Part shown: positions 5,013-37,879 of the stretch, piece by piece | How the letters are laid out: each line of letters begins with the position of its first letter | Numbering within the stretch: position 1 is the first letter of the stretch | NCBI GenBank assembly: GCA_039028935.1 | Contig: JBCCHD010000004.1 | Location: 49,043 to 113,042, forward strand | DNA length: 64,000 nt | Source: Pseudomonadota bacterium | GTDB taxonomy: Bacteria; Pseudomonadota; Gammaproteobacteria; Steroidobacterales; SZUA-146 | Direction of reading: 5' to 3' | Program-made: the position numbers and the translations under genes | The notes under the pieces: model-generated | The model's input: the letters and a program-made list of their open reading frames with translations, nothing else | Told to the model about the DNA's origin: nothing | Databases searched by the model: none

Positions 5013-6239
5013 TTACAATCGAATCACACGCAGCGACTGGCCTCTTTTAATTTGTGTATTCGCTGGAATAACGATTAGCACGTCAGCCGCGCACAATGCC
5101 CCCTGCACCGATGAAGACTGCGTACCGGAGGGTTCGACCACAAGATCTGGATAATCACTGACGATTCGACCACGCAGATGATCAACCCGATCACTCAGCT
5201 TGTCACTGGAGAAGCCCGCAATCGCCGGTAGCCGAGCGGGCAAGCGAAAATCAGCGCCTTTTAACTTAGACAAAAACGGCGCGCAGAATAGATGAAACGT
5301 AACGAATGACGACACCGGATTTCCCGGTAAACCCAACACCGGCGTGCCCTCCGCTTCACCGAACAGAAACGGTTTGCCGGGCTTGATGTTGATTTTCCAA
5401 AACTCGGTGCGACCAAGCGTATTGAGCGCAGCCTGCACATGGTCTTCTTCGCCAACCGACACACCGCCGATGGTCAGCACCGCATCATTATCCGACACGG
5501 CCTCGCTCAACACGCGTCGCGTCGCATCCAATGTATCGGGTGCGCGGTAGGCAGTGGCGTCACAGCCTAGCGCTGCGAGTGTCGACAGAATCATGGGCGA
5601 ATTGGACTCAATAATCTTGCCGGGCGGCAGCACCATCTCATTCGTTTGACGTCCGTCAAGCTCAGTCACATCCACCAGCTCGTCGCCGGTTGCGACAACG
5701 CCGACGCGCAACGGTTTAAACACATGAATTTGGCCGATACCTGACGACAACAAAAAGCCGATTTCTTGCGGCCGAATTTCCGTTCCTTGCCGAAGCACGC
5801 GGTCGCCCTGCTTCACGTCGTTGGCACGCCATCGGATGTTCACGCCCTCACGGAGTCCGCGGCGAATCTGAACGTGCTGTGCGTCGTACTCGCAGTTTTC
5901 CTGAATCACCACGCAGTTGGCGCCATCGGGAATTTCCGCGCCGGTAAACACCCGGGCCGCCGTGCCAGTTTCAAGCGGTACGGGCGCTTGTCCTGCCGCA
6001 ATGCGCTGTGACAGGCGAATGGATTGATCAAGGCGCACATCGCGCACGTTGACGGCAAACCCGTCCATCGCCGAATTATCGGCCGGTGGTGAATCAATTG
6101 CCGCATGCACATCCTCGGCCAGAACACGGCCGCACGCCTGCTTGACGGCGACAGCCTCACTCTCCGGCCGATGGCGCGGCACCGCCTCTTCAAGGCGCAG
6201 CCAAGCTTGTTCCAGCGAGAGTGCAACCGCCCCGGTCAT
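5013..6239 (-). CDS. moeA: Molybdopterin molybdenumtransferase MoeA
   Basis: MoeA-like sequence throughout (AMDGFAV, GGVSVGEEDH, LPGNPVS). I chose the ATG at 6239 (MTGAVALSLEQAW). It lies 2 nt after the moaB stop, and the longer ORF overlaps moaB. Confidence 0.85.
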   Translation of the reverse strand: MTGAVALSLEQAWLRLEEAVPRHRPESEAVAVKQACGRVLAEDVHAAIDSPPADNSAMDGFAVNVRDVRLDQSIRLSQRIAAGQAPVPLETGTAARVFTGAEIPDGANCVVIQENCEYDAQHVQIRRGLREGVNIRWRANDVKQGDRVLRQGTEIRPQEIGFLLSSGIGQIHVFKPLRVGVVATGDELVDVTELDGRQTNEMVLPPGKIIESNSPMILSTLAALGCDATAYRAPDTLDATRRVLSEAVSDNDAVLTIGGVSVGEEDHVQAALNTLGRTEFWKINIKPGKPFLFGEAEGTPVLGLPGNPVSSFVTFHLFCAPFLSKLKGADFRLPARLPAIAGFSSDKLSDRVDHLRGRIVSDYPDLVVEPSGTQSSSVQGALCAADVLIVIPANTQIKRGQSLRVIRL

Positions 6240-6241
6240 CG

Positions 6242-6751
6242 CTAAGACGCACCGCGATCGGCCAACAGCGTTCCGACGAAGTTGCAGGGTTTGTGGGTGC
6301 TGTCGAGCTGCTCTTTGACTACGCGCCATGCCGTGCGGCACGCGCCTGTCGACCCCGGCATGCACACCACCAGCGTATGATTGGCAAGCCCGGCAAACGC
6401 GCGCGACTGAATGGTGGAACTCCCGATCTCCTCATAGGACATCGCGCGAAACACTTCGCCGAAGCCTTCTACTTGCTTGTCAAGCAGCGGCCGAATCGCC
6501 TCGGGCGTGGAGTCGCGGCCCGAAAAACCGGTGCCCCCCGTGACGAGTACGACATGGATCTCACGGGAGGCAATCCACTCCGAAACGACCGCTCTGATAT
6601 CGTAAATATCGTCTTTGACCAACAGGCGATGGGCCAGTCCGTGACCCGCCTCGGTGAGTGCCTGGGACAAAAAATCGCCAGACGTGTCGTTTTCCAGTGT
6701 GCGCGTATCCGATACGGTCAGTACGGCAATAGTCAAAAATTGTTGTGTCAT
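6242..6751 (-). CDS. moaB: Molybdenum cofactor biosynthesis protein B (MoaB/MogA family)
   Basis: 169 aa with the MoaB pattern: TVSDTR, VLVTGGTGFSGRDSTPEA, LPGSTGA-like PGSTGAC. Confidence 0.85.
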   Translation of the reverse strand: MTQQFLTIAVLTVSDTRTLENDTSGDFLSQALTEAGHGLAHRLLVKDDIYDIRAVVSEWIASREIHVVLVTGGTGFSGRDSTPEAIRPLLDKQVEGFGEVFRAMSYEEIGSSTIQSRAFAGLANHTLVVCMPGSTGACRTAWRVVKEQLDSTHKPCNFVGTLLADRGAS

Positions 6752-6760
6752 TGGTCGTTC

Positions 6761-7513
6761 CTAAGTGACGGTATGCTGCCAGAGAAGGCGCGTGCCGACA
6801 GCCAGCACCAACACGCCGGTTAGCCGTTTTATCCAGGGGCCCGGCAGATGGCGAGCGCTCAAGCGACTGCCGATCTGCCCGCCAATGAGCACTGCAACGG
6901 GCAGCCATATGTACACACCAAACTCCGAGAAACTGAGCGAAGTTTCCGCCTGTTTGCTCAGCTGTCCAGCGAGTCCCGCCACTGAGTTTACCAAGATAAA
7001 GAAGCTCGCCGTAGCCGCTATTTTGCGGGCACCTGCAATGTGGAGGTGGTGCATCAATGGCGCAAGAAAAATGCCGCCGCCAATTCCGACCACGCCCGCC
7101 AAAAAGCCTAACCCACCGCCCAACACCGGCGCGAGTATCGGCCAGTTGTCCGACCGCGTTCGGTCCGAAGGGCCATACTGAGTAACCAATAGTAGGCCCG
7201 ACACAACCAATGCCGCGCCCAGCGTCAGCATGAAAACCGGCTGCGAAACCGCCAGTGTGCCGCCCAACCAGGCGGCTGGCACCGACGTGAACACCAGCGG
7301 CAGCATAGAGCGATAGTGCATGAGTCCAGCGCGGGTGTACTGCACAACGCCGCCACTGACCACCACGATGTTACAGATGAGCACGAGAATGGGCAGCAGA
7401 CGATAATCGAGGGTAGAGAGCGCTAACAGCGCCGCATAGGTTGAGCCCCCGCCGAACCCCACCATCGCATACACCAACGCAGTGACGCCGAACGCGGGTA
7501 GGAGTAGATTCAC
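6761..7513 (-). CDS. TauE/SafE (DUF81) family anion-exporter-like membrane protein
   Basis: 250 aa and very hydrophobic, with about 7-8 TM segments and Gly-rich helices (GFGGGSTYAALL, VGIGGGIFLAPL). The GTG start overlaps the mobA stop (GTGA). Confidence 0.75.
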   Translation of the reverse strand: MNLLLPAFGVTALVYAMVGFGGGSTYAALLALSTLDYRLLPILVLICNIVVVSGGVVQYTRAGLMHYRSMLPLVFTSVPAAWLGGTLAVSQPVFMLTLGAALVVSGLLLVTQYGPSDRTRSDNWPILAPVLGGGLGFLAGVVGIGGGIFLAPLMHHLHIAGARKIAATASFFILVNSVAGLAGQLSKQAETSLSFSEFGVYIWLPVAVLIGGQIGSRLSARHLPGPWIKRLTGVLVLAVGTRLLWQHTVT

Positions 7514-8112
7514 TCGGTGGGCCGTTCGCGGTTGGCAGACCCGCCGAACGGATCATTTACATTGGCAAACTCAACATCATCAAAACGTACAGGCACCGCG
7601 TGCCGCTGCATAAACGGGACAAGGGCCAGTCTTTGATCCATCAGGGCTTCCCGTACGAGGTGGACAAGCTTCGTATGAAGCACGGCACAGGTCGGAATGA
7701 GACTGCCACCAGAGACGGCGTAGGCAGCGCCGTCTCGTCGCGCTGCTTGGACGAGCTTGGCATACACCTGATTGGGCAAAGCAAGCTGGTCACAAGGGGC
7801 GACGGCCAGCCACTCATCATCGGTCGCCTGACAGCCGGCATAAATCCCGGCCAGCGGACCATGGTCAACAAAAGGTCCATCACCAATTACCGCATAACCT
7901 GCTGCTTCAAAAACGGCACGGTCGCGCTCGGTGTTAATGAACACCCGCTCACAACAGGCGCGAAGATTGGCCGCCGCAAACTCGAACAGTGGCACCGATC
8001 GATCGCCATCCGGCCACGGAACAAGCGCCTTATTGACACCTCCGGCGCGTCGCGCGCGCCCTGCAGCAAGCACCACACCCGTCACCTGACCGGGTTCTTC
8101 GTTCACCATCAA
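7510..8112 (-). CDS. mobA: Molybdenum cofactor guanylyltransferase MobA
   Basis: 200 aa with N-terminal nucleotide-binding motif GVVLAAGRARRAGGVNKAL. The start abuts the moaA stop. Confidence 0.8.
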   Translation of the reverse strand: MMVNEEPGQVTGVVLAAGRARRAGGVNKALVPWPDGDRSVPLFEFAAANLRACCERVFINTERDRAVFEAAGYAVIGDGPFVDHGPLAGIYAGCQATDDEWLAVAPCDQLALPNQVYAKLVQAARRDGAAYAVSGGSLIPTCAVLHTKLVHLVREALMDQRLALVPFMQRHAVPVRFDDVEFANVNDPFGGSANRERPTE

Positions 8113-9120
8113 CTAGCCGCCCGTATGGTGCATGTAACGCAGTACTTTGACTTCCGGTTCGTGGGAGAACGCATGACGCTCGGGTTTTTTGTGAATGCCC
8201 GCCAGTACCGCTTGCTGTATCGCCTCAATACTACCGGGATCACGACGTGTCACCGCACGCAAATCGATCGCGTTTTCATGGCCCAGACACAACAGCAACT
8301 TACCTTCTGCGGTGAGCCGCACGCGATTGCACGTCGAACAGAAATTCTCACTGTGCGGACTAATAAAACCGATGCGACTGGTGTGCCCTTCGATCACCCA
8401 GTAGCGTGATGGCCCGCCGCTGCTAGCAGTGGTTGCCATTAGTGGGTAGCGTGTCTCAATGACTTCGCGCACATCGCGACTTGAAAAAAACGCATCCTTA
8501 CGGCTGTGGTCAGTCACAACACCCAGCGGCATCTCTTCAATAAAGCTGATGTCCATCTGATGTGCTAACACGTAGTCTATTAGTGGCAGAATTTGTTGAT
8601 CATTGAAGCCGCGCATCACCACACAATTGAGCTTGATCCGACGAAACCCCGCCTGGCGTGCCGCCTCTAGACCCTCCAACACCCGCTCGAGCTTGCCGAC
8701 ACGCGTGAGATCTTTGAAGGTGGGTGCATCCAGCGTATCCACACTCACGTTGAGCCGATGCAACCCCGCATCGGCAAGTTGCGGCGCATAGCGCGCGAGC
8801 TGTGAGCCGTTGGTTGTCATGGCAAAATCATTCAGCCCATCTTCGGCACCCAGCTTTTCAATTAACCACATTATGTCGCGCCGAACTAAGGGCTCGCCAC
8901 CGGTCAATCGAATCTTGCTGACGCCAAGATGGATAAATGCCCGACCGATCAGCGCAAGCTCCTCGAGACTCAACACGTTTTTGCGCGGCAAAAAGGTAGG
9001 GTTTTCATCCATGCAGTAGCGACAGCGAAAATCACATCGATCGGTGACCGACATGCGCAGATAGGTCACACGGCGACCAAATGCGTCGCGAAGCTCGGAT
9101 TGTGTGGAGGTGTTCGGCAT
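8113..9120 (-). CDS. moaA: GTP 3',8-cyclase MoaA (radical SAM)
   Basis: Radical-SAM cluster motif CDFRCRYC, a C-terminal second-cluster region CSTCNRVRLTAEGKLLLC, and a terminal GG. I chose the ATG at 9120 (MPNTSTQ). Confidence 0.9.
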   Translation of the reverse strand: MPNTSTQSELRDAFGRRVTYLRMSVTDRCDFRCRYCMDENPTFLPRKNVLSLEELALIGRAFIHLGVSKIRLTGGEPLVRRDIMWLIEKLGAEDGLNDFAMTTNGSQLARYAPQLADAGLHRLNVSVDTLDAPTFKDLTRVGKLERVLEGLEAARQAGFRRIKLNCVVMRGFNDQQILPLIDYVLAHQMDISFIEEMPLGVVTDHSRKDAFFSSRDVREVIETRYPLMATTASSGGPSRYWVIEGHTSRIGFISPHSENFCSTCNRVRLTAEGKLLLCLGHENAIDLRAVTRRDPGSIEAIQQAVLAGIHKKPERHAFSHEPEVKVLRYMHHTGG

Positions 9121-9250
9121 GTAGAAAATGGTATAAATCGGCCTATGGCCTTTGAATCTCAAATGCTACCACAGACGCCCTGCTGGCCGGTTTGTTCCCA
9201 CGCGGCATCGCGTTACACTTTAGTGATAATTCCGCAGTGAGGAAAAGGCC

Positions 9251-9724
9251 GTGTCGCTGTCCCATATCGACAACAACAACCGCCCCACAATGGTCGATGT
9301 GACCGATAAAGACGCGACCCGGAGGAGCGCGGCCGCCGAAAGTCGTGTGCGCTTTCCGGCCGACGTATTCGCGTCCCTTATGTCACACGATCTCAACGCG
9401 AAAAAAGGACCGATCATCGACACCGCAATCATCGCAGGCGTGATGGCGGCCAAACGCACGCATGAGCTCATTCCATTTTGTCACCCATTGCCGCTGGATG
9501 GCGTGAGCATCCACATCGTCACGAGCGAAGACACACACGAATTGGTCGTCACCGCCCGATGCAAGGTCACCCACAAAACCGGTGTTGAAATGGAAGCACT
9601 GACCGCTGCGTCGGTGGCGGCATTGACGATCTACGACATGTGCAAGGCCCTGTCGCACGACATCGAAATACGCGCCACGCGACTCGTCGAGAAACGTGGC
9701 GGTAAAACGGATGTCGGCGCATGA
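9251..9724 (+). CDS. moaC: Cyclic pyranopterin monophosphate synthase MoaC
   Basis: 157 aa; [15 protein letters not shown] and [10 protein letters not shown] are typical of MoaC. GTG start. Divergent from moaA. Confidence 0.9.
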
Positions 9725-9963
9725 TCACACTTCAGATCGAGTACTTCGCCACACTGCGCGAACAGGCAGGTCAATCCCGCCAAACACTCGATACTGAATT
9801 GCGCGATGCAAGGGCCGTTTATGCGTTGCTCGCCAACGAACACCAATTTTCGCTCGGCGTTGACGATTTAAAACTGGCCGTTAACGACAGGTTTGCCGAC
9901 TGGTCACACACACTCAATGACGGCGATCGACTGGTATTCATTCCACCTGTATCCGGGGGCTGA
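9721..9963 (+). CDS. moaD: Molybdopterin synthase sulfur-carrier subunit MoaD
   Basis: 80 aa, ubiquitin-like, ending in the diagnostic C-terminal GG (IPPVSGG). The start overlaps the moaC stop (ATGA). Confidence 0.85.
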
Positions 9964-9964
9964 T

Positions 9965-10390
9965 ATGTTCGAATTGACCGACACCGATATCGATATCGAG
10001 GCGCTCAGGCATGCGCACGCGCACGACGCTTCAGGCGGTTTCGTGTGTTTTGAAGGATGGGTGCGCAATCATAATGATGGGCGTGAAGTACGCGGCTTAC
10101 AGTATGAAGCGTATGCCCCACTCGCCCTGAGTGAGGGCAACGCGATTGTGAGCGAAGCGCTCGACAAATTCAATATTCGCACTGCTCGCTGTCAACACCG
10201 TGTTGGCGAACTGGCCATCGGTGGCGTTGCGGTGTGGGTGGGTACAGGCAGCGATCATCGTGATGCGGCGTTTCGCGCCTGCCGGTACATTATCGATGAA
10301 ATCAAAGCGCGCGTGCCGATCTGGAAAAAAGAGCTTTATGTGAGCGGCGATACGCAATGGATCGATTGTCGCGATGAGGAAACGCCTTAA
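9965..10390 (+). CDS. moaE: Molybdopterin synthase catalytic subunit MoaE
   Basis: MoaE-like sequence (GGFVCFEGWVRNHN, YEAY, IWKKE). I chose the ATG at 9965, immediately after the moaD stop, rather than the longer overlapping ORF. Confidence 0.85.
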   Translation: MFELTDTDIDIEALRHAHAHDASGGFVCFEGWVRNHNDGREVRGLQYEAYAPLALSEGNAIVSEALDKFNIRTARCQHRVGELAIGGVAVWVGTGSDHRDAAFRACRYIIDEIKARVPIWKKELYVSGDTQWIDCRDEETP

Positions 10391-10476
10391 CGATGCCGAC
10401 CAGAACAGTCTTGACCGTGCCACTTTACGCACACCCCTAAACGCCCATTGAGAGGACACTAGACAAGGAAACCGCG

Positions 10477-10800
10477 ATGAGTGAGTTTGTTGACTTTCTG
10501 CAGGAGCAATTCGAGCTGTTCGGTCGCATCAACAGTAAAAGAATGTTTGGCGGACATGGTTTGTTTTACGACGGCCTGATGATTGGTCTGGTGGCCGACG
10601 ATACGCTATACCTAAAAGTGGACAAGCAATCGAAGGCGCAATTTGAGCAGTCTGGGCTGGCACCTTTTCGCTATAACAAGAACGGCAAGTGGATGACGAT
10701 GAGCTACCATCAAGCACCACCGGAAGCACTGGACGATCCGGAGGTCATGCGAGAGTGGGCGAATCTCGCTTTCGAAGCCGCACGTCGCAGTAAGAAGTAG
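10477..10800 (+). CDS. TfoX/Sxy N-terminal-domain protein
   Basis: 107 aa. The pattern KRMFGGHGLFYDGLMIGLVADDTLYLKVD is typical of TfoX N-terminal domain proteins. Confidence 0.6.
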   Translation: MSEFVDFLQEQFELFGRINSKRMFGGHGLFYDGLMIGLVADDTLYLKVDKQSKAQFEQSGLAPFRYNKNGKWMTMSYHQAPPEALDDPEVMREWANLAFEAARRSKK

Positions 10801-14350: not shown

Positions 14351-15370
14351 GTGGCAAAAAGTAATATTCACGACGTTGCCAAACGGGCGGGTGTCTCGAT
14401 TAAGACCGTATCCCGCGTGATCAATAATGAACCCAATGTGCGGGAAAACACGCGCGCCGCGGTGCAGCAGGCTGTCGACGAGCTCAACTATCGACCCAAG
14501 GCCTCCGCGCGTAGCCTAAAAGGCCGTCGCTCATACTTGGTGGGATTGCTCTATGACAACCCGAGCTCGAGCTACGTTGCCAACATTCAGCAGGGTGTTA
14601 TCGATGAAACGCGGCGTCGTGGCTACGACCTGGTTATCCATCCTTGTAGTTACTTAAACCCCGGACTGTGTGACGAAGTAGAAGAACTCGTACGTCACGC
14701 GGATGCGGACGGCCTTATTCTTACGCCGCCGTTGTCCGACGACATTACGCTCATGAACAAGCTCGACGAACTCAACACGGCGTATGTGCGTATTGCCGCC
14801 GTCACACCCAAACAAGGAACTCTGCGAGTCACCACCAACGATCGCGACGCGGTGGCCGATCTCACCCGGTATCTGGCGTCACTGGGTCATCAACGAATTG
14901 CGTTCATAATCGGCCACCCCGATCACAAGGCGGTCGCCAATCGCTATCTCGGTTATCAAGACGGCCTCACGTCATGTGGTATCGAGCTCGATGAATCGTT
15001 GATCATTCAAGGCAATAACAGTTTTGAGTCCGGCGAAGAGTGTGCGCGCAAACTGCTATTAAAAACTCAACGGCCAACGGCCATCATCGCCAGCAACGAC
15101 GATATGGCGACCGGCGTTTTACGCGTCTCTCACGAAATGAAGCTCAATCTTCCCGATGAACTCTCTGTCGCCGGTTTTGACGATATTCCCATGGCGAGTC
15201 AGGTGTGGCCGTCGCTTACAACGGTTAAACAACCGGTCAAACGCATGGGCGAGCGCGCGACAGCGCTGTTGCTTGATCAGCTTCACGGTCGCGCTACGGA
15301 TGTGCAGTCTGAGTCGATCGACTCGTATCTTGTGCTCAGAGAATCAACCGGTAGTGTCGGACCACGCTAA
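14351..15370 (+). CDS. LacI family transcriptional regulator
   Basis: N-terminal HTH NIHDVAKRAGVSIKTVSRVINNEPNVRENTR followed by a periplasmic-binding-protein-like sugar-binding fold. The GTG at 14351 is preceded by AAGGGAAGGAG. The ORF track starts 17 codons earlier. Confidence 0.85.
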   Translation: MAKSNIHDVAKRAGVSIKTVSRVINNEPNVRENTRAAVQQAVDELNYRPKASARSLKGRRSYLVGLLYDNPSSSYVANIQQGVIDETRRRGYDLVIHPCSYLNPGLCDEVEELVRHADADGLILTPPLSDDITLMNKLDELNTAYVRIAAVTPKQGTLRVTTNDRDAVADLTRYLASLGHQRIAFIIGHPDHKAVANRYLGYQDGLTSCGIELDESLIIQGNNSFESGEECARKLLLKTQRPTAIIASNDDMATGVLRVSHEMKLNLPDELSVAGFDDIPMASQVWPSLTTVKQPVKRMGERATALLLDQLHGRATDVQSESIDSYLVLRESTGSVGPR

Positions 15371-15394: not shown

Positions 15395-16411
15395 CTACTC
15401 AATGCGGCAGAAAGCCGCGCCGTACAGACCCGGGTCTTTAACGAGCACGAGTGAGACCGGTGTTTGTGCAACAAGGTCCGACATCGCGCCTGCGTTGAGA
15501 AATCGATTGACGAATCGTTCTTGCGAAAATAAGGGCTCAATCGAGCGCAGGATGTTGCCGCTGAGATAAAGACCACCACGAGCACAAAACGTGATGGCAA
15601 GGTTGGTACAGTAAGCCGCCAAAATGTGAAGATAGAGCTCGATGGTTTCTTCGCAATCGGCTTGGGCGCCCTCGCGAGCCTGTGACGTAATGGCTTCGGC
15701 GGTCATCGGCGAATACGGACGGCCATTCATTTGTGACAGCGCCTGATGGATCAGCGGGATTCCTGGCCCCGCGAGCAACATTTCCATCGACACGAAATCA
15801 TGGCGACGACTCAATACCTTGAGTAATTCACGCTCGCGGCGACTCGCCGGCGCAAAGCGCGCATGGCCACCTTCACTGTCGATGATATGCGGCTCGCCCT
15901 CCACTTCCGTCATCGCCGCCACACCCAATCCAGTACCCGCGCCAACCACCACCTTGCGGACGCCTGTTCGCACACCCTCATGCAAAACGCGTGTTTCATC
16001 CGCTGACAGCTGCGTAATGGCATGCGCAACGGCTGTGAAGTCGTTAACAATTTCGAGCTTTTTGAGGTTGAGCGTTTTTTGCAGCTCTTGCGCCGACAGC
16101 GTCCAGTTCAGATTGGTGAACTGCACGGTGCCATCGTCGACCGGTCCCGCCGCCGCAATACAAGCGCGATCGGGGAGATTGCGGCCCAGATAATTGCGAT
16201 AGGCGATAACCGTTTCAGCCGGACCGTCAAAATCGGCGCATTTGAATACTTTGATGTCGACCAGCGCGCCCCGCCCTGACTCTGGTGATTCGGCCACCAA
16301 AGCAAAACGGGCGTGCGTGCCGCCGATATCGGCAACAAAACGCGAATATTCGGGCGAGTATTCGCTGATCGGGCCTGCATGCAAGGGTGTCTGGGATGTG
16401 CGTTCGGTCAT
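15395..16411 (-). CDS. glk: Glucokinase
   Basis: Glk motifs: FVADIGGTHARFALV, LNWT, NDFTA, GAGTGLG. I chose the ATG at 16411 (MTERTSQ). Confidence 0.85.
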   Translation of the reverse strand: MTERTSQTPLHAGPISEYSPEYSRFVADIGGTHARFALVAESPESGRGALVDIKVFKCADFDGPAETVIAYRNYLGRNLPDRACIAAAGPVDDGTVQFTNLNWTLSAQELQKTLNLKKLEIVNDFTAVAHAITQLSADETRVLHEGVRTGVRKVVVGAGTGLGVAAMTEVEGEPHIIDSEGGHARFAPASRRERELLKVLSRRHDFVSMEMLLAGPGIPLIHQALSQMNGRPYSPMTAEAITSQAREGAQADCEETIELYLHILAAYCTNLAITFCARGGLYLSGNILRSIEPLFSQERFVNRFLNAGAMSDLVAQTPVSLVLVKDPGLYGAAFCRIE

Positions 16412-16549
16412 TCGATTCAATCCATCGTGCACTCGGTGACGAGCAAGTACACTCTTTGTTATGCCTGGCGCCCTTCTTTCGGAACGCCTCATTGTCACCG
16501 GGCTATCCACACTCTAAAACCCCGGAATACCGTCACGTTATAGCAGATG

Positions 16550-16563
16550 TGACATCGTTGTCA
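16550..16563. promoter_or_regulatory. LacI-family operator-like palindrome, site 1 (TGACATCGTTGTCA)
   Basis: 14-bp near-perfect palindrome with a central CG. It is one of four closely related copies in the window and lies in the glk / PEP-CTERM divergent intergenic region. Confidence 0.65.
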
Positions 16564-16705
16564 ATTTATCCTAGGCGTCGTTAATAATGGTCATAGCCGG
16601 AATAGCTGATACTTAAGTATCTGTTATTAATGAACTATCTAAAAAACCCTGACTATCGTTAAATCGCCCTTCCAGCCTCCCGGCAGCACTCTCAAATGAC
16701 ACTAT

Positions 16706-16719
16706 TGACAACGTTATCA
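16706..16719. promoter_or_regulatory. LacI-family operator-like palindrome, site 2 (TGACAACGTTATCA)
   Basis: It lies 156 bp from site 1. Both sites are followed by the same extension AATTT..CCTAGG. Confidence 0.65.
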
Positions 16720-16868
16720 ATTTTCGCCTAGGGTAACGAGCATGTGAGCAAACATCCTGCGTCTCAGGCTTTTGCCTACAGCAAAAAGAGTAAAACAAAA
16801 CGCAGTACCGAATTTACCGTTTCGATCGCAAAACGCGACGAAAGCACTTAAAAAGAGGGGAGAGACTC

Positions 16869-17603
16869 ATGTTCAACAAGAGCAAGAAACTACTTGCCGC
16901 ACTCATCGTAAGCTTTGCGCTAGCACCGATGAGTCAGGCAGCGCTGTCGAGCTACAGCCAGGACTTTGAGAGCCTGGATGACACCGATGGCGGCGCGTTG
17001 GCTGGCGATGGCTGGCTGGTATTTGCCAACGTCTTCGATGCCGGCGGTGGCTATCTGTACGGCTACGGCCCCAACCCGGCACCCAATGGCGGTCCGGCTT
17101 TCTCGGCTGTTGCGGTCGGCCAAGGCGGTGCTGCACAAGGTAATCAGCAGATGGTGGTCTACAGTGACTACAATAATGGTGATCACGGCAATGGCAACTT
17201 GATTGAAGCCAATGTCTTCCAAGAGCAGATCATTGGTGCCGGCGACGTTGGCTCAACGTGGGAGTTTTCGTTTGACGCCCAGGTGAACGACCTGGCCGCA
17301 CCCACCACATCACTCGCGTTCATCAAGACGCTCGATCCGAACGCGGGCTTTGCGCTGAGCAGCTTCTTGATCATCGACACCACGAATGTCGCAGCTTGGA
17401 ACAGCTACACGATCTCGATTCTGATCAACAGCGGTCTACAAGGCCACATTCTGCAGTTCGGTTTTGCCAGCACGGCAACCAACTTCAACGCATCCGGCGT
17501 GTTCTACGACAACGTGAACTTCAGCCAGGTGCCTGTGCCAGCTGCTGTGTGGCTGTTCGGTTCCGCGCTGCTGGGCTTGTTCGCTACGCGACGCCGCGCC
17601 TAA
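16869..17603 (+). CDS. PEP-CTERM sorting-domain protein with beta-sandwich (carbohydrate-binding-module-like) body
   Basis: Signal peptide (KKLLAALIVSFALAPMSQA). C-terminal PEP-CTERM anchor VPVPAAVWLFGSALLGLFATRRRA. RBS AGAGGGGAGAG lies upstream, and codon usage is biased toward T/C-ending codons. Confidence 0.85.
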   Translation: MFNKSKKLLAALIVSFALAPMSQAALSSYSQDFESLDDTDGGALAGDGWLVFANVFDAGGGYLYGYGPNPAPNGGPAFSAVAVGQGGAAQGNQQMVVYSDYNNGDHGNGNLIEANVFQEQIIGAGDVGSTWEFSFDAQVNDLAAPTTSLAFIKTLDPNAGFALSSFLIIDTTNVAAWNSYTISILINSGLQGHILQFGFASTATNFNASGVFYDNVNFSQVPVPAAVWLFGSALLGLFATRRRA

Positions 17604-19931: not shown

Positions 19932-21659
19932 CTATTGACCGGCTGCGGGTCCGGGTGGATTGAAGAAGTACCCCTGCATGATCACCAGATCAAAAAAGTT
20001 CACCGCGCCGTCACCATTAAAGTCCGCATCCTCACTGTCGCCGAGGAACACGCCGCTGAACAACGACAAATCAAGAAAGTTGACGATGTTATCGTTGTTC
20101 AAATCCGGATCACAGTCATTGCCAAAACCGTCACCATCCGTGTCGCGCTGACTGACATTGGCCACAGCCGTGCAGTTGTCGACGCTGTCGAGCACACCGT
20201 CCTCATCGGTATCGGCGGCGGACGAGAACTTCCAAAGATCCGTTGAGAAATTAATATTCGAACCGGTTGTATTGAAGGTCATGACCACACCCGTGAGCGG
20301 GCCATTAGTCGCCACATACGGGTCAAAACTGCCGTTACCACCCCAGTGATAACTGTTGTCATCGAACAGCTGATCGAGTTCGATCACCACTTCCTGCCAG
20401 CCACCGCCAGCAACGGCGCAGGGCCCGGTCGGACTCACGACGCAGTTAAACTGAAACTCGTCGTCCGCCCCATCGGGCGGGTTCATGACGGTTTGGTCGT
20501 TGTCGTCGTCATCCAGAAAATTGAGTTCGATCGTGTAAGACTGATTCGCGAGCGGATCAATCCAGAAACTGAAGCGACTCATACCCGACAAATCGAGCGG
20601 CATGTTGCGGCCAATGCCCCCGGCGAAACCGGATGAGCCACCAGTGCCATAGCCTACTTGGATCGCGAATTCGCCACCGACAATCGGTGGCACGTTTGAA
20701 CTCGAGGCATTCAATCCACCTCCGCCAACCGAGCCATTGAAACTGAACCAATCATTACCAAATGGATCGCCGTGTTCCAGATCGTCAAAGACCAAATCCG
20801 GTGAGGTAGGCACTTCGGCAGGCAGCTCATACACGCGCACGTAGTCGATCACGTATTCCATCGGAAACACCGTGCTGCCATCAGGCGGGCCCGGCAAATT
20901 CCCGCCCACCGCCAGATTCAGCAACATATGAAAGTCGACATCAAACGGCGCTGGGAAATTGCCGTTGGTTGTATACCACGCATTTTGCGTTGCATAGAGC
21001 ACATCGTCGATGTACCAACGCATTTCTCCGGCCTGCCACTCCACCGCGTAGGTGTGAAAGTCGGTGGCCGTTCCTGCCGGCAAATTAGTGGCGTTACCGG
21101 TAAACACGTTTTCGGGAAACATACCGCCGTAGTGAATCGTGCCAAACACGCGATCGGGTTGATCGCCGGTTTGTTCCATGATGTCGATTTCACCGCTGGC
21201 CGCCCAAGTGCCGTAGGCATTCGCGGATGGCAACATCCAAAACGCTGGCCACATGCCCTGCCCAGTCGGCAACTTGGCACGCATTTCAATCCGGCCGTAC
21301 GTAAAATCGCCTTTGTTCAACGAACGAATGCGAGTCGATGTGTAGTTATAGCCCGCGAAGCCGTCGTTTTTGGCGGTGATCGTCAGCACGCCATCGGCCA
21401 CCGTGTCGTTAACACTGGTGTAGTACTGCAGCTCGTTATTGCCCCACCCGGGAATACCGTAGAGTTGGCCATTTCCGATCATGTAGCTCCACTTCGTTTG
21501 ATCGAGTTCGGTGCCATCAAATTCATCCGCCCACACCAACGGGCAGTCGGGATCGAATGCGCAGTTTGCCTGAGCGCTGCCGGTCATCACCGCCAGAAGG
21601 ACAAGACACAACGTCTGTACGAGTGGTTGCCCGAAGGGCGGCAAGGTCGAGTGTTTCAT
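19932..21659 (-). CDS. Secreted GH16 beta-glucanase (laminarinase-type) with central accessory domain and C-terminal thrombospondin-type-3 / dockerin-like module
   Basis: Signal peptide. GH16 catalytic motif GEIDIMEQ (ExDxxE) with WPAFWMLP upstream. C-terminal DTDEDGVLDSVDNC, DTDGDGFGNDCD, NIVNFLDL and NGDGAVNFFDL. Confidence 0.85.
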   Translation of the reverse strand: MKHSTLPPFGQPLVQTLCLVLLAVMTGSAQANCAFDPDCPLVWADEFDGTELDQTKWSYMIGNGQLYGIPGWGNNELQYYTSVNDTVADGVLTITAKNDGFAGYNYTSTRIRSLNKGDFTYGRIEMRAKLPTGQGMWPAFWMLPSANAYGTWAASGEIDIMEQTGDQPDRVFGTIHYGGMFPENVFTGNATNLPAGTATDFHTYAVEWQAGEMRWYIDDVLYATQNAWYTTNGNFPAPFDVDFHMLLNLAVGGNLPGPPDGSTVFPMEYVIDYVRVYELPAEVPTSPDLVFDDLEHGDPFGNDWFSFNGSVGGGGLNASSSNVPPIVGGEFAIQVGYGTGGSSGFAGGIGRNMPLDLSGMSRFSFWIDPLANQSYTIELNFLDDDDNDQTVMNPPDGADDEFQFNCVVSPTGPCAVAGGGWQEVVIELDQLFDDNSYHWGGNGSFDPYVATNGPLTGVVMTFNTTGSNINFSTDLWKFSSAADTDEDGVLDSVDNCTAVANVSQRDTDGDGFGNDCDPDLNNDNIVNFLDLSLFSGVFLGDSEDADFNGDGAVNFFDLVIMQGYFFNPPGPAAGQ

Positions 21660-21968
21660 AGGACATTACTTCCGAATTAGAGGGGTTCGCGGACCCCTGA
21701 ACCTGATCGCGTACCGATATTGCGGCATTTATCCCGATATCGTTGTTTTTATTGGCTATTTGCACTTGCCCTGCGGTGAGCGACCGCTTGGATAGAGCTT
21801 AGCTTAGTTTTCCTTATCGTATCTTAACTTTTTGTTTTACAAAGCTTGTTTCGACATAAATGGCGCGCAACCAGCGACGTCGACATTTCAATGCGCGTCC
21901 TCCGGACACCCTGGGCGGCCGCTTAATCCGAGCCGACAGAGTATGTCGCGGCGCCAGTGAAGCCGCAG

Positions 21969-21982
21969 TGACAACGTTGTCG
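21969..21982. promoter_or_regulatory. LacI-family operator-like palindrome, site 3 (TGACAACGTTGTCG)
   Basis: Same motif as sites 1 and 2, in the GH16 / DUF885 divergent intergenic region. Confidence 0.6.
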
Positions 21983-22137
21983 GCTGAGGCCCTACGGCGG
22001 TCAAGTTTCACCGGCTGCACTGTAATCAATAAATAAAACATATGCTTATGTTTTGACATGGCCGTCGGTCATCGGCTGTGGCAAGCATTCGACCCATCGA
22101 CCTTCTGCTGGCCCGTTTACCTCACACTAACCATAGG

Positions 22138-22151
22138 TGACAACGTTGTCA
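22138..22151. promoter_or_regulatory. LacI-family operator-like palindrome, site 4 (TGACAACGTTGTCA, perfect)
   Basis: Perfect 14-bp palindrome, 169 bp from site 3 and about 250 bp upstream of the DUF885 gene. Confidence 0.7.
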
Positions 22152-22397
22152 ATCTAATGCCCGTAAAGGGCGAGCCGGGTCTGGCGCACGGTACTTTCGC
22201 GTAACGATGCGTGTCGATGGTGTTTACTAAACGCACACACTAATCCATGCGCCGCCGACCCGACTGGTCGGTGCGTGAACATCCCCAGCCCGCTTGATCG
22301 CCCGTCTCTGTGCTTAGCGCAACCCTTTGAGGCGGTGGTGCGTCATACTCATAAAATGCCCTTCTGCATTTCATCTATTTGTTTTTGAGGTACTACT

Positions 22398-24143
22398 ATG
22401 CGCACGATTCATCGCACCCGGCTGCTCTTTATTGCATTTTGTGGTTTCGCCCTTAACGCCATGGCATCCGACAACTGGGTCGAGACAAGCAATGCCAATG
22501 CGCAAATTGTTCTGAAAGCCATGGCCAAATACAGTCCCGAGGGAGCCGGTAGTCTCGGCGTGGATGGTCTCGACGAAGACATCAGTGTCTGGGACAAGGG
22601 GATTTACAAACGCTCTTTGGCCGACTTTGATGAAACGCTCAAAGCACTGAACAAAAAGCTCGATGACGAAACTCACCCGACCGTGCGTCAGGATCTTCAG
22701 ATTCTCATCAAAGCGATTGAAGACAGCCTGACGTCGACCAAACTCGATCGCGACAACATGCTGCCCTATTACAATGTATCGAGCACGGTCTTTAGTGGTA
22801 TTCGCGGCCTTATCGATCCGCAGATCCCTGCGGAACGCTACCCCGCTGCCATCGTGCGACTCAAGAAATACGCCGGCATTGAACGCGGCTATACGCCCAT
22901 TGTGGAGCACGCCATAGCACGCACCAAAGAACGCTTCAAAGTCAAAGGTCTGGTTGGCCCCTACAAGGGCGAAGTCGAACAAGACCTGGAACGCAGCGCG
23001 ACGTTTATCACCGGTATCAAAGAATTATTTGAGGGCACAGAGCTCACCGGCTGGGAAGAGGCTTACGAAACATTGGCCAAACAGCTCAACGACTATAACG
23101 ATTGGGTACGCGCCGAAATGCTCCCTCGCGCTCGCGAGGATTACCGCCTACCGAATGTTATGTATCGCGACGCGTTGAAAAATTGGGGCGTGGACGCGGA
23201 TCCAGAAGAGCTCATTAAGCGAGCCACAGCCGGCTATATGGACATCCGCAATGAAATGGAGGCGCTTGCGCCACTGGTTGCGCAAGAAAAAGGCTATGAA
23301 ACAAAAGATTATCGTGAGGTGATCCGACTTCTAAAAGAAGACCGCGTCACGGGTGACGCATTGCTGCCGTTCTATCGAGATGTCTTGGGCGAACTTGAAG
23401 ACATCATTCGTGCTGAGCGGCTCGTGAGCCTTCCGGAGCGCGAGGCCGGTATTCGCATCGCGACGGCGGCGGAAACAGCGCGACAGCCGGCCGCTCACCT
23501 GGATGTGCCACGACTGATCGGCAATACCGGTGAATACCCAACATTTGTTATTCCATTGCTAGAGCAAAACGAGGACGGTACCTGGCCCGAATCGGACGAT
23601 ACATACAAAGCCGGGGCATGGACACTCACCGCGCACGAGGCTCGACCGGGTCACGAACTGCAGTTTTCGAGCATGATCGAAGGCGGCGTGTCGATTACTC
23701 GGGGCGTCTTTGCGTTCAATAGTGCGAATGTCGAAGGTTGGGCGCTGTATGCCGAAGCCATCGCGAAACCCTATATGCCGCTCGATGCGCAAATGATCTC
23801 TCTACAGTACCGCTTAGCCCGCGCGGCGCGAATGTACCTCGATCCGATGTTGAACTTAGGTCGAATCACACCCGAGGAAGCCAAACGTATCCTCAAAGAG
23901 GATGTGGTGCTAGGCGAAACCTGGGCCCAGAACGAGATCGAACGCTACACCTATCGTATTCCAGGTCAGGCGACCGCGTACTATTACGGGTACCTCAATC
24001 TGCAAGCACTTCGAACTCAAACAGAAATCGCCATGGGCGAGGCGTTCGACGCTCAAGCTTTCCACGACTTTATTCTCGCGCAAGGACTGTTGCCGCCAGA
24101 CATCCTTGCGCAGGCCATTAGAGAGAAGTTTGTGCAAATGTAA
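22398..24143 (+). CDS. DUF885-family protein (putative secreted metallopeptidase-like)
   Basis: 581 aa with a signal peptide. The motif TAHEARPGHELQ resembles the HExxPGHxxQ signature I associate with DUF885. The family name is from memory. Confidence 0.65.
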   Translation: MRTIHRTRLLFIAFCGFALNAMASDNWVETSNANAQIVLKAMAKYSPEGAGSLGVDGLDEDISVWDKGIYKRSLADFDETLKALNKKLDDETHPTVRQDLQILIKAIEDSLTSTKLDRDNMLPYYNVSSTVFSGIRGLIDPQIPAERYPAAIVRLKKYAGIERGYTPIVEHAIARTKERFKVKGLVGPYKGEVEQDLERSATFITGIKELFEGTELTGWEEAYETLAKQLNDYNDWVRAEMLPRAREDYRLPNVMYRDALKNWGVDADPEELIKRATAGYMDIRNEMEALAPLVAQEKGYETKDYREVIRLLKEDRVTGDALLPFYRDVLGELEDIIRAERLVSLPEREAGIRIATAAETARQPAAHLDVPRLIGNTGEYPTFVIPLLEQNEDGTWPESDDTYKAGAWTLTAHEARPGHELQFSSMIEGGVSITRGVFAFNSANVEGWALYAEAIAKPYMPLDAQMISLQYRLARAARMYLDPMLNLGRITPEEAKRILKEDVVLGETWAQNEIERYTYRIPGQATAYYYGYLNLQALRTQTEIAMGEAFDAQAFHDFILAQGLLPPDILAQAIREKFVQM

Positions 24144-34347: not shown

Positions 34348-35820
34348 TTGTTCGGAATCACATTCAATATGACCCTTTTCCGCCTTGCTCGCGCGAACCC
34401 AACCACTCTGCGCACAATCCTTCTCGGCCCGATGCTGTTTGTTCTGCTCGCGGCCTGCGGTCCGAGCATCGATTTACCTGAGTTACCCGCTGTCGACACC
34501 AGTGCGTTGCTGGCGGACGTTGCGGATCAGCTCGACGCCAATCGAGCGCGGGTCGAAAAATCCCCTGGGAACGCCACGCTAGCTGGCCGTTACGGTCTGG
34601 TGCTCGCAACCTATGGACGCGATGAAGCCGCGGATGTCGCCTTTCAGCGCGCCCGATTGCTGGAGCCCGATGAAGCGCGCTGGGCGTTTTATCACGCCTT
34701 TGTGTTGCGCCGCTTGAGTCAGCCCGATGCGGCCCTTAGCGCCATCGAGGCCGGCCTGTCGGCGCAACCCGATCAAATCGACCTAGTGGTGAAGCGTGGC
34801 GAGCTGTTGTTTGATCTGGCGCGTTTCGACGAGGCAGAGGCCAACTTCGACCAAGCGCTGAATCGCAATCCCAAGTATCCGCTTGCGCAATACTACAAAG
34901 GTCGCATTCACATGACTCGGTCCGAGTGGCCTGAGGCGATCAAGCGGTTCGAGAATATGATCCAAGACGGCATTTTGGTTAACGAAGTGCATTTTAACCT
35001 CGCCACGGCCTATCGAATGAATGGCGACGCAGCGCTCGCCGAAGAGCAGCTCGCGCTCTCGCAAGGAGACAGCCAACTGAAGATTGCCGGCTTTGATCCG
35101 GTCAATATGAAGTTCGACACCCTGAATGTGGGCGACCAGCCTCACGTGCTGCGTGCGGCACGGCATTACCGAAGTGGCAACCTGAATGAAGCCATCGCTG
35201 AACTGCGACTCGCCTTTGACAAGAACCCAAATAACGCCGCGACCCACGCTAATTTAATTCGTATGTATGGCCAGAGCAGACAACTCGACAAAGCCATTGA
35301 GCACCACGAGCTTGGCAAGGCGATCGATCCCAACTATGCCTTGCTCGACAGCAATATGGGTTTTGCTTACGCCTCGTCCGGCGATTTCGCAAACGCCGTC
35401 GACGCATTGACTCGCGCTGCCGAGCAATCGCCCAATGACGCGGCGATACAGGCCGAACTCGGCTTTGCCTTGGGCAAAACAGGCCGGCTTGACGAGGGCA
35501 TCGAGCGCATGCAGCAGTCGCTGGAACTCAATGCCAATAATCGCGACTTGCGCTTTATATTGGGCGAGGCGATGGTCAAACAACGCCGTTTTCCAGAAGC
35601 CATCCAACTCTTCGAATCGGCCTTCGTACCCGGCGACCCCAAAACAGTCGCTATCATGCGTGCGTTAGCGCGCACCCATATGCTCTCGAGCAATCCGAGC
35701 GCCGCCGCGGCCACGTTAACCGATGCCATCGAACTTGCCGATTCGCTCGGCAAACCGGATATGGTTGAGGCACTCGAGGCCGATCTCGAGCGGGTGACCG
35801 TGGCTAGCTCGCCGAACTGA
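34348..35820 (+). CDS. TPR-repeat lipoprotein (paralog A)
   Basis: Lipobox LLAAC. TPR-like helical repeats throughout. It is collinear over its full length with the product of 37880-39271. Confidence 0.8.
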   Translation: MFGITFNMTLFRLARANPTTLRTILLGPMLFVLLAACGPSIDLPELPAVDTSALLADVADQLDANRARVEKSPGNATLAGRYGLVLATYGRDEAADVAFQRARLLEPDEARWAFYHAFVLRRLSQPDAALSAIEAGLSAQPDQIDLVVKRGELLFDLARFDEAEANFDQALNRNPKYPLAQYYKGRIHMTRSEWPEAIKRFENMIQDGILVNEVHFNLATAYRMNGDAALAEEQLALSQGDSQLKIAGFDPVNMKFDTLNVGDQPHVLRAARHYRSGNLNEAIAELRLAFDKNPNNAATHANLIRMYGQSRQLDKAIEHHELGKAIDPNYALLDSNMGFAYASSGDFANAVDALTRAAEQSPNDAAIQAELGFALGKTGRLDEGIERMQQSLELNANNRDLRFILGEAMVKQRRFPEAIQLFESAFVPGDPKTVAIMRALARTHMLSSNPSAAAATLTDAIELADSLGKPDMVEALEADLERVTVASSPN

Positions 35821-35848
35821 TTCAACTGGGTTTGCCGACATACTATCG

Positions 35849-37690
35849 ATGGCTCATAAGACTCTTGCGCAACGTTCGCCTTCCCGGCAACCCACAGCGA
35901 ATCCTTTCGCCAGCAGGCTCGTCATAGCGCTTTTATGCCTACTACCGTTGGCCTGCAGCGAACAACCCAATCCGCGCACACAGGACGGCCAACACGCGGA
36001 GCTCGGTGCGGCCGCCAGCGGGCCAACACTCACCACGCCAGCGTTCACCGACATTGCTGAGCAGTCTGGATTGTCTTTTTTTCACCACAGCGGCGCGACC
36101 GCGAAGAAGTTCTTTCCAGAAATTATGGGCAGTGGCGGCGCGCTCGTGGATTACGACAACGACGGTGATTTGGATGTCGTCTTAATTCAGAGCGGTCGCA
36201 TCAACCAAATTGATGACCCTCTTTTTCCCTTCGTTGACTCAACCAACCATGTCCAGCTCTTTCGCAACGATCTGCATCACGGCGCGCCGACGTTCACCAA
36301 TGTGACTGATACAAGCGGTCTTGTGCTCGAGGGTTACGGCATGGGGGTGGCAACGGGCGACCTCAACAACGACGGCTATGCCGACCTGTATCTCACTAAC
36401 GTTGGCACCAACGCGCTTTTTATCAACAACGGCAATGGCACCTTCACCGAGGCCGATGCGGGGATCGCGGATGATGACGCCGGCTGGTCCACCTCCGCGA
36501 GCTTTCTCGATTACGACCTCGATGGCCATCTCGATTTATTCATCACGCGCTATGTCGACGTTGACCTTGTAACGGGGCGCCGCTGCACCAGCAACGATGG
36601 CCAGCGCGACTACTGCTCGCCTGATGTGTACGTGCCATTGACCGATCTATTGCTTAAAGGTGACGGCTCAGGACGTCTTTCACCGGTTGAACGGTGGCAT
36701 GCCGGCGGTCCGGCACCGAGCACAGGGCTTGGTGTGATTGCCGCGGATTTCAACAGCGATGGCTGGACCGACCTGTATGTCGCTAACGACAAAAAGGCCA
36801 ACCAGCTCTGGATCAACCAAGCCAACGGCCTGTTTGAGGAAACGGCCGTGATGAACGGCAGTGCGTTTGACGCGAACGGCAAAGCCGAAGCGAGCATGGG
36901 TGTCACCAGCGGCGATGTCGACGCAGACGGTGACGAAGATCTGTTTATCACGCACCTTAAAGGCGAATCCAATACGCTGTACTTGAATCAAGGTAACGCG
37001 ATGTTTATCGATTCGACCATTGTCTTTCGGTTGTCGTCCAACAGCTTACCGTCAACCGGGTTTGGTACCGGATGGATCGATCCGGATAACGATGGCGACC
37101 TCGACCTATTTGCCGCGAATGGGGCCGTCATGATCGAGTCTAGCCAAATCAACACCGAGCCCTTTCCCTACGTGCAGGCGAACCAGCTTTTCGAGCAGAT
37201 CGAGGGCTTAAGTTTTGTCGACGCCAGCGCCCCGGCAGGCTTTGCCGATGAACGCCCTGAAATCAGTCGAGGTGCGGCATTTGGCGACATTGATAACGAT
37301 GGCGACATCGACATTCTCGTCACGAACAACGAGGGGCCCGTGCGTTTGTTGCGTAACGATCAATCCCATAACCATGCCTGGCTAGGCATCAGTGTACAGG
37401 GGGTCACCGCCAACCGGGACGCGGCCGGCGCACGCGTGGGCGTCGAACGGAACAATGCACCGACTCTGTGGCGCCGGGTCGGCACCGACGGCAGCTATCT
37501 GTCGGCCAATGACAAACGCGTACTGATCGGCCTGGGCGTCGATCCCTCGCTATCCGGTCTTGTGGTGAGCTGGCCAGACGGTCAAACCGAACGTTTTCCT
37601 ACGCCGACGCTAAATACGTTTATCACCCTGGTGCAAGGCGAGGGGCTGGACTTTTCCAGCGCTGAGCGCGACGTGAGCGGTACACCCTAA
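35849..37690 (+). CDS. CRTAC1-family lipoprotein (FG-GAP/VCBS repeats + ASPIC/UnbV C-terminal domain)
   Basis: Lipobox LPLAC. Repeated DxDNDGDxD(L/V) motifs (DYDNDGDLDV, DLNNDGYADL, DYDLDGHLDL, DFNSDGWTDL, DVDADGDEDL, DPDNDGDLDL, DIDNDGDIDI). C-terminal GARVGVE...GSYLSANDKRVLIGLG. Confidence 0.85.
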   Translation: MAHKTLAQRSPSRQPTANPFASRLVIALLCLLPLACSEQPNPRTQDGQHAELGAAASGPTLTTPAFTDIAEQSGLSFFHHSGATAKKFFPEIMGSGGALVDYDNDGDLDVVLIQSGRINQIDDPLFPFVDSTNHVQLFRNDLHHGAPTFTNVTDTSGLVLEGYGMGVATGDLNNDGYADLYLTNVGTNALFINNGNGTFTEADAGIADDDAGWSTSASFLDYDLDGHLDLFITRYVDVDLVTGRRCTSNDGQRDYCSPDVYVPLTDLLLKGDGSGRLSPVERWHAGGPAPSTGLGVIAADFNSDGWTDLYVANDKKANQLWINQANGLFEETAVMNGSAFDANGKAEASMGVTSGDVDADGDEDLFITHLKGESNTLYLNQGNAMFIDSTIVFRLSSNSLPSTGFGTGWIDPDNDGDLDLFAANGAVMIESSQINTEPFPYVQANQLFEQIEGLSFVDASAPAGFADERPEISRGAAFGDIDNDGDIDILVTNNEGPVRLLRNDQSHNHAWLGISVQGVTANRDAAGARVGVERNNAPTLWRRVGTDGSYLSANDKRVLIGLGVDPSLSGLVVSWPDGQTERFPTPTLNTFITLVQGEGLDFSSAERDVSGTP

Positions 37691-37879
37691 CTCGCCACTC
37701 GACTGCGGTGTTCGCAGCACTGATTCTGGTGCCAAGATTGATCGAACACATAAACGTGAACGGAGACACGCGGCATTCACGAGTACAAAGGGTATGATCA
37801 GTGCATGAACATCCAGACCCATTCGTCTGAGGCCGTCTTCCAGCTGATCAGCACGGCATGCCGTCGCGGGGCAATTCAA

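Follow-up and report, generated by a model that had tools for sequence, protein, structure and literature searches.

The window, that is, the whole 64-kb stretch of DNA analysed, carries the gene of a GluR/BglR-like LacI-family repressor of 339 aa (14351-15370, plus strand; Pfam LacI HTH and Peripla_BP_3/1), which starts at a GTG codon behind GGAAGGAG and is the presumed cognate regulator of the sites described below. As the initial annotation had claimed, this gene is convergent with the glucokinase gene, glk (15395-16411, minus strand; Pfam Glucokinase, E 2.7e-88; TIGR00749, 241 bits vs. a cutoff of 225), with 24 bp between the two stop codons. The longest glk ORF extends to 16510; since residue 59 of this ORF is the first one in the Pfam match and a gene caller predicted a product of 338 aa on an identical contig, the start codon was placed at 16411. 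On the other side, a 457-bp intergenic region separates glk from the gene of a secreted PEP-CTERM protein of 244 aa (16869-17603, plus strand), with a signal peptide and, as regards Pfam, the PEP-CTERM tail only. Further along lie a gene for a GH16 endo-beta-1,3-glucanase, a laminarinase (19932-21659, minus strand; Pfam GH16), and, divergent from it across a 738-bp intergenic region (21660-22397), a DUF885 gene (22398-24143, plus strand; Pfam DUF885). The PEP-CTERM and GH16 genes are both predicted members of the regulon discussed here. The window also houses unrelated neighbours, such as a molybdenum cofactor cluster (MoeA, MobA-like, MoaA and MoaE; 5013-10800), two TPR proteins flanking an FG-GAP/UnbV_ASPIC protein (34348-39271) and an MttB-family methyltransferase gene (39378-40934), while an Rfam scan of the whole 64 kb returned no family at threshold.

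The region between glk and the PEP-CTERM gene houses two 14-base palindromes, both found where the initial annotation had placed its pair of LacI-type operators, 156 bp apart start to start. Site 1 (TGACATCGTTGTCA, 16550-16563) is the predicted operator at glk, 1.2 kb from the regulator gene, and Site 2 (TGACAACGTTATCA, 16706-16719) the predicted operator at the PEP-CTERM gene. Two further sites precede the laminarinase gene: Site 3 (TGACAACGTTGTCG, 21969-21982), weaker and 310 nt 5' of the GH16 start codon, and Site 4 (TGACAACGTTGTCA, 22138-22151), a perfect palindrome. All four are intergenic. Within the 64-kb window, four matches with at most one mismatch to TGACAACGTTGTCA were found vs. 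0.02 expected, and none of 100 shuffles reached four. When a weight matrix of 20 columns, trained on 91 unique sites exclusively from other genomes, was applied, Sites 1 to 4 scored 23.1, 26.2, 17.0 and 25.3 bits, respectively, more than 10 bits clear of all else, the runner-up position scoring 6.4 bits. A match inside a TonB-dependent receptor gene (28770, TGACATCGGTGACA) was dismissed as a site, since it reached those 6.4 bits only. The consensus, WTGACARCGYTGTCAW, is a 16-bp palindrome whose central C and G occur in 98% of the 91 unique sites, and an even palindrome with a central CG is common to 1173 of 1303 LacI-family motifs. A full-text literature search for the 14-mer found no paper.

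The closest relatives by regulator identity are the loci L001 (81%), L129 (metagenomic, 80%), L014 (79%) and L002 (69%), in all of which the regulator-glk arrangement is kept. These relatives allowed an assessment of the longer direct repeat in which Sites 1 and 2 had been said to be embedded. The repeat is present in the window (18 nt at 16/18 identity, then TTT..CCTAGG offset by 1 nt), but its conservation in related genomes ends after ATTT. As L001, L014, L002 and L129 all lack CCTAGG at the corresponding positions, the repeat was dismissed as a functional unit and its CCTAGG part is, on this comparison, specific to the window's genome.

The regulator aligns end to end with CcpA (332 aa, E ~1e-44) and PurR (340 aa, E ~1e-41), its best matches among solved structures. 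Its residues 5-317 align with residues 5-314 of LacI and the protein ends 22 residues later, leaving no room for the LacI tetramerisation helix (LacI residues ~340-357). It carries the sequence ARSL, with Leu56 as the hinge-helix leucine, the residue which inserts at the central CpG in LacI and PurR. The protein was also compared with the sequences catalogued by Ravcheev et al. 2014 (PMC4052901), the closest of which was Caulobacter GluR (CC2053; 46% identity over 334 residues), followed by BglR3 (41%), BglR1 (37%), the Sphingomonadales BglR (34%) and the Alteromonadales BglR(1) (30-33%). The helix GVSIKTVSRV.N.EPNV is common to the regulator, GluR and BglR3. Judged by its sequence, the regulator is thus a gammaproteobacterial relative of GluR and BglR, the predicted glucose/beta-glucoside regulators of Caulobacter.

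A scan with the regulator protein, taking one genome per species, gave 80 loci (40-81% identity, 1.43 Mb). Comparison of regulons in related genomes, which had been suggested with the initial annotation, revealed that the motif recurs beside the regulator homologues: 158 matches to TGACARCGYTGTCA (at most one mismatch) were counted in these loci vs. 0-2 in first-order Markov simulations, and 77% of them fell in intergenic DNA, which makes up 13% of that sequence. The gene most often facing a site was a GH3 beta-glucosidase gene (39 loci), followed by that of the regulator itself (30 loci, with the site just upstream), zwf (11 loci), glk (8 loci), a GH16/PEP-CTERM-domain cluster (8 loci, 10 genes), a TonB-dependent receptor (5 loci) and sugar transporters of the SSF and MFS types (4 loci each), counts which are approximate because the ORF calling in these loci was crude (longest ORF, greedy choice). 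Large proteins of two clusters, of ~1160 aa (8 loci) and ~733 aa (6 loci), are also recurrent neighbours of the operators and gave no Pfam match at E 1e-5 (L018:1614-5096, L051:3839-7372, L056:5536-9018, L021:5044-7245). Moreover, a -10-like hexamer (at least 4/6) lies 16-18 nt from NTGACA at 45 of 190 oriented sites vs. 14-19 of 190 at control offsets, and therefore the promoter-embedded operator is a recurrent design in this regulator family. A further layout, absent from the window, consists of tandem operators 31-36 bp apart (L018:5261-5305, L037:6474-6521, L051:7510-7559, L056:9207-9256, L063:6160-6207, L065:4458-4506 and L075:19973-20020), and in those whose layout was read, e.g. L075 and L065, the first operator lies over the -35 and spacer and the second just past a TATAAA/TATAAG -10.

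With these data, the idea that the palindromes arose by chance, or represent copies of a non-regulatory intergenic repeat, is effectively refuted. Its one point of support comes from a search of metagenomes for the exact 18-mer of Site 1, in which 55 of 56 matches were unrelated chance ones and L129 alone was orthologous; consequently, a lone match proves nothing, whereas its context does. This idea is contradicted by the four sites found vs. 0.02 expected in the window, by the conservation of the palindrome core and not of its flanks, and by the consistency of positions and neighbour genes across loci from Gamma- and Alphaproteobacteria. It is also improbable, although less remotely so, that another factor, e.g. 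a LacI-family paralogue encoded elsewhere, binds the sites and that the adjacent regulator recognises something else. The DNA visible here is 64 kb of a genome, Caulobacter has several paralogues (GluR and BglR1-3) with related helices, and the regulator gene in the window has no upstream site of its own, unlike many of its homologues, all of which would suit such a factor. Nevertheless, the motif tracks the homologues of this very regulator in the 80 loci, often directly upstream of their genes, the recognition helix is identical to that of GluR, in whose loci the motif is also found, and the gene, which lies beside a target, is the sole LacI-family one among the 30 largest window ORFs scanned. 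The assignment of the sites to the adjacent regulator, as originally claimed, is therefore favoured by the company that the motif keeps in both Gamma- and Alphaproteobacteria.

At glk, the initial annotation had set the operators in a divergent promoter region and had made its case depend on conservation upstream of orthologous genes. Site 1 is in fact an island of conservation 5' of the orthologous glk genes: its 14-mer plus ATTT is invariant in five genomes (the window, L001, L014, L002 and L129), as is GTTATA, amid otherwise diverged DNA (mean column identity of 43% in the four-genome alignment A1). The invariant block consists of GTTATA, 7 or 8 variable bases, and then TGACATCGTTGTCAATTT, which on the minus strand reads as TTGACA, a 16-17-nt spacer and TATAAC (TATAAA in L002). 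In the window, the right half of Site 1 together with position 16564 gives TTGACA on the minus strand, 16 nt from TATAAC (16537-16542, minus strand), the predicted glk -10, whose position was inferred from the conservation of GTTATA on the plus strand. Thus, Site 1 would cover the -35 hexamer and spacer of a near-consensus predicted glk promoter. Scans of both intergenic regions for consensus promoters and terminators returned nothing; the glk promoter was missed because the scanner demands a T at position 6 of the -10. The -10-like hexamer at Site 2, TAGGGT, matches just three of the six consensus positions, and the promoter calls rest on conservation because the scanner rules exclude both TATAAC and 3-of-6 hexamers.

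On the side of the PEP-CTERM gene, Site 2 together with position 16705 gives TTGACA on the plus strand, 18 nt from TAGGGT (16729-16734). Site 2 is conserved in L001, L014 and L129, at 157, 157 and 156 bp from Site 1, and absent in L002. The gene on its right is the PEP-CTERM gene in the window and an SSF sodium/sugar symporter gene in L014 and L129, while L001 keeps the site though nothing sugar-related lies downstream, only MscS, and L002 has a divergent SSF transporter gene, yet Site 1 alone. The variety of genes to the right of Site 2 would suit the idea that both sites serve glk only, Site 2 being an auxiliary upstream operator and the PEP-CTERM gene an unregulated chance neighbour. However, the plus-strand layout TTGACA-18 nt-TAnnnT is conserved, with TAGGGT in the window, TACTGT in L014 and TAATCT in L129. 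In addition, eight loci were fetched by means of PEP-CTERM-protein homologues, independently of the regulator, and six of them had an operator of their own (23-27 bits) at a similar distance, 94-109 nt 5' of the homologue, with TAnnnT 17 nt after NTGACA in four of those six; three of the six contained a divergent regulator homologue (50-56% identity), and the stretches fetched for the remaining three yielded no LacI-family gene call. Homologous N-terminal domains are also encoded in GH16 operons behind an operator in L002, L004 and L005. An operator role of Site 2 at the PEP-CTERM gene, as first proposed, is thus upheld by homologues collected without reference to the regulator, and a purely glk-directed function of the pair is unlikely.

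The N-terminal domain of the PEP-CTERM protein, of ~190 residues, has 1439 homologues and matched no Pfam or NCBIfam model. The AF2 model of the protein (pLDDT 90.2, pTM 0.81) gave beta-sandwich modules of CBM16/22/61/4/11 as best Foldseek matches, with a target-normalised TM-score of ~0.6 for CBM16 and CBM22, and hence the domain is predicted to be a CBM-like beta-sandwich. It occurs in the window (16869-17603) as well as in L002:9975-10982, L004:152-1138, L005:7187-8167 and L084-L089; its gene often adjoins GH16 behind the same operator, and the C-terminal anchors of the homologues vary among PEP-CTERM, VPLPA-CTERM and a TSP3/dockerin-like region. In the loci examined, the CBM-like-domain gene lies behind the operator of the regulator family or beside a GH16 gene. 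It may be tentatively proposed, with somewhat more against than in favour of it, that Site 2 switches the gene of one of a large family of secreted, often exosortase-anchored proteins, as yet undescribed, whose domain binds beta-1,3-glucan at the cell surface. If true, these proteins would be a proteobacterial counterpart of the surface glycan-binding proteins in the laminarin loci of Bacteroidota.

The GH16 gene encodes a catalytic domain which matches solved laminarinases at E 4e-58 and a C-terminus of thrombospondin type 3 (TSP3) and dockerin-like repeats, the same kind of tail as replaces the PEP-CTERM anchor on the CBM-like proteins in L002, L004 and L005. Upstream of it, Site 4 provides TTGACA-17 nt-TAGTGT on the minus strand, facing GH16, and its L001 equivalent TTGACA-17-TACGAT in the same orientation. 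The motif was found 5' of GH16 or PEP-like-GH16 operons in L001, L002, L004, L005, L015 and L085, and similarity of the 738-bp intergenic region to relatives is detectable at the operators only. The position of Site 3 is not conserved in L001 or L002, and neither is the spacing of 169 bp between Sites 3 and 4, since L001 has one site there and L002 a pair separated by 241 bp. Transcription from a promoter at Site 4 would give a leader of ~458 nt, with Site 3 inside it at ~+135. An 81-aa ORF containing Site 3 (21814-22059, minus strand) was rejected as a gene because it is conserved nowhere. As for the DUF885 gene, L001 and L002, the closest relatives, are the only ones in which it adjoins GH16, and no promoter-like layout was found on its side of Site 4; it is a possible target of the regulator.

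The analysis shows that the sites are present and non-random, that both the sites and the promoter-like elements around them are conserved, and that the sites accompany the regulator family. The initial proposal that they are LacI-type operators is well sustained by the non-random sites, the co-occurrence of motif and regulator, and the conserved target positions. On these grounds, Sites 1 and 2 are probably operators for the adjacent LacI-family repressor, placed on two back-to-back promoters, and with Sites 3 and 4 would make up a small laminarin/glucose regulon. Binding, repression, the effector and the transcription starts are what we infer beyond this. The two back-to-back promoters would be of the sigma-70 type, each with an operator over its -35 hexamer and spacer: Site 1 on the leftward glk promoter (TTGACA-16 nt-TATAAC) and Site 2 on the rightward promoter of the PEP-CTERM gene (TTGACA-18 nt-TAGGGT). 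RNA polymerase would be blocked by a repressor dimer at one or the other site. The repressor would be freed by a sugar effector, with glucose or laminarin-derived beta-glucosides as a guess taken from the GluR/BglR predictions. The sites upstream of the laminarinase gene, 3 and 4, would belong to the same utilisation regulon. The predicted surface beta-glucan binder, the laminarinase and the glucokinase form a coherent set. What speaks against this reading is the empty outcome of the consensus promoter scans, the retention of Site 2 in L001, where nothing sugar-related follows, the presence of Site 1 alone in L002 in spite of its divergent SSF transporter gene, and the missing site upstream of the regulator gene.

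The distance between Sites 1 and 2 had been described as compatible with cooperative binding or looping. This statement gains some support from the comparison among genomes, since the spacing is kept at 156, 157, 157 and 156 bp in the window, L001, L014 and L129, four lineages in all, but a loop of the LacI type, closed by a tetramer, is ruled out, as the regulator has no tetramerisation helix. A loop of the gal type is still considered because the 156/157-bp spacing, which corresponds to 14.9-15.0 turns at 10.5 bp per turn, persists despite diverged intervening DNA. In fact, the inter-operator DNA shows, without gaps, 34-38% identity among the window, L001 and L014 vs. a shuffled mean of 31%, and, with gaps, 52-56% in all six pairs including L129. 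At the same time, Site 1 lies at no fixed distance from the conserved FVADIGG codon of glk: 211 nt in the window, 251 nt in L001, 261 nt in L014 and 449 nt in L002. Near the operator midpoint, an AT-rich block (16612-16645) is partly conserved in the four lineages, and a stretch of 28 nt in it holds 14 of the 24 invariant inter-operator columns (alignment A6). The conserved spacing and this block hint, at the level of sequence, at a constrained geometry. A 28-nt imperfect palindrome (AATAGCTGATACTT/AAGTATCTGTTATT, 16601-16628) overlaps the AT-rich block, and the segment 16601-16645 could be the site of an architectural protein, that of another regulator, or a rightward extended -10 (TGTTATTAA).

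As an addition to the operator-promoter arrangement preferred above, dimers at Sites 1 and 2 might interact, loop the AT-rich DNA and cooperatively repress both divergent promoters, in which case an architectural protein may act on the conserved central block, by analogy with HU in the E. coli gal repressosome. The persistence of a spacing of nearly 15 helical turns across intervening DNA which is almost randomised, while the distance to the glk codon varies, speaks for such a loop, as do the AT-rich block near the midpoint and the retention of Site 2 in L001, which has no divergent sugar gene there. Against it, the regulator, of 339 aa, aligns with the dimeric CcpA and PurR and lacks the C-terminal tetramerisation helix of LacI; L002 manages with Site 1 alone; and the other long-range pairs in the family (124, 163, 169 and 241 bp, or 11.8, 15.5, 16.1 and 23.0 turns) have no common phase. 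The short tandems of 31-36 bp are, furthermore, commoner than long-range pairs in the regulator family. No IHF consensus was found in the control region between glk and the PEP-CTERM gene, which also weighs against a loop, while HU offers no consensus to search for. As the conserved spacing stems from four lineages only, which are not fully independent, looping is considered here a doubtful, though still tangible, possibility.

A LacI-family repressor with promoter-embedded operators is in itself an already known, ordinary kind of gene switch. What would be new is the presence of GluR/BglR-type operators, and of a small laminarin/glucose regulon predicted from them, in an uncultured marine gammaproteobacterium. 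Laminarin is among the largest marine organic carbon pools, and its use has been mapped far less well in Gammaproteobacteria than in Bacteroidota. An operator motif tied to a regulator family could provide a cheap read-out of laminarin/glucose regulons from metagenome-assembled genomes. Moreover, the motif flags an uncharacterised family of PEP-CTERM-anchored proteins, CBM-like according to the structural model, as a probable core member of the regulon, and the 156/157-bp spacing is a hint, open to experiment, that a dimeric member of the family may loop DNA as in gal.

The nearest known system is the GluR (CC2053) regulon of Caulobacter, whose LacI-family regulator has the same recognition helix as that of the window and 46% full-length identity to it. 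The GluR regulon and the paralogues BglR1-3 were predicted by comparative genomics (RegPrecise; Ravcheev et al. 2014, PMC4052901), with gluR downstream of zwf-pgl-edd-glk and preceded by its own site and with no GluR orthologues outside Caulobacteraceae among the genomes of that paper; no experimental paper on GluR was found in the literature, GluR itself being known by prediction. Caulobacter loci encoding GluR orthologues of 83-96% identity carry the same palindrome, ATGACAACGTTGTCAT, 5' of zwf and gluR, and the window motif can therefore be classed as GluR/BglR-type. In these loci the site at zwf is TGACAACGTTGTCA and that at gluR is TGACA[AG][CG][CG][CT]TGTCA, with a non-CG centre. The gluR-upstream sites (L017:9932 and L028:9933) have a GG/CC or CC/GG centre (TGACAGCCTTGTCA, TGACAAGGTTGTCA) rather than the CG seen at zwf, and may be deliberately weaker autoregulatory operators. 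Both systems have targets in glucose and beta-glucoside catabolism, including glk, but the regulon of the window is laminarin-centred (GH16, the CBM-like PEP-CTERM protein and glk), whereas that of GluR comprises zwf-pgl-edd-glk, pykA, ppdK and sucABCD. Furthermore, the regulator of the window is gammaproteobacterial and has no autoregulatory site, while GluR belongs to Caulobacteraceae and has its own site upstream.

Among the systems of E. coli, LacI, with its operators O1/O2/O3, shares with the window the protein family, the hinge-helix leucine, the logic of the central CG and the multiple operators per control region. The difference is that LacI loops as a tetramer by means of a C-terminal four-helix bundle, which the regulator of the window does not have. 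PurR and CcpA, with which the regulator aligns end to end, bind as dimers to CG-centred palindromes of 14-16 bp that overlap promoters, as predicted here; they differ in that PurR uses a corepressor and CcpA HPr-Ser-P, and their half-site sequences differ too. Finally, E. coli GalR is a dimeric LacI-family repressor without the tetramerisation helix which binds CG-centred palindromes, and the gal operators OE and OI lie 113 bp apart with an AT-rich apex and HU, forming the gal repressosome. The window resembles gal in its dimer-type regulator, its two operators more than 100 bp apart, the AT-rich block between them and the CG-centred palindromes. In gal, however, both operators flank one promoter region, whereas in the window each operator would overlap its own divergent promoter.
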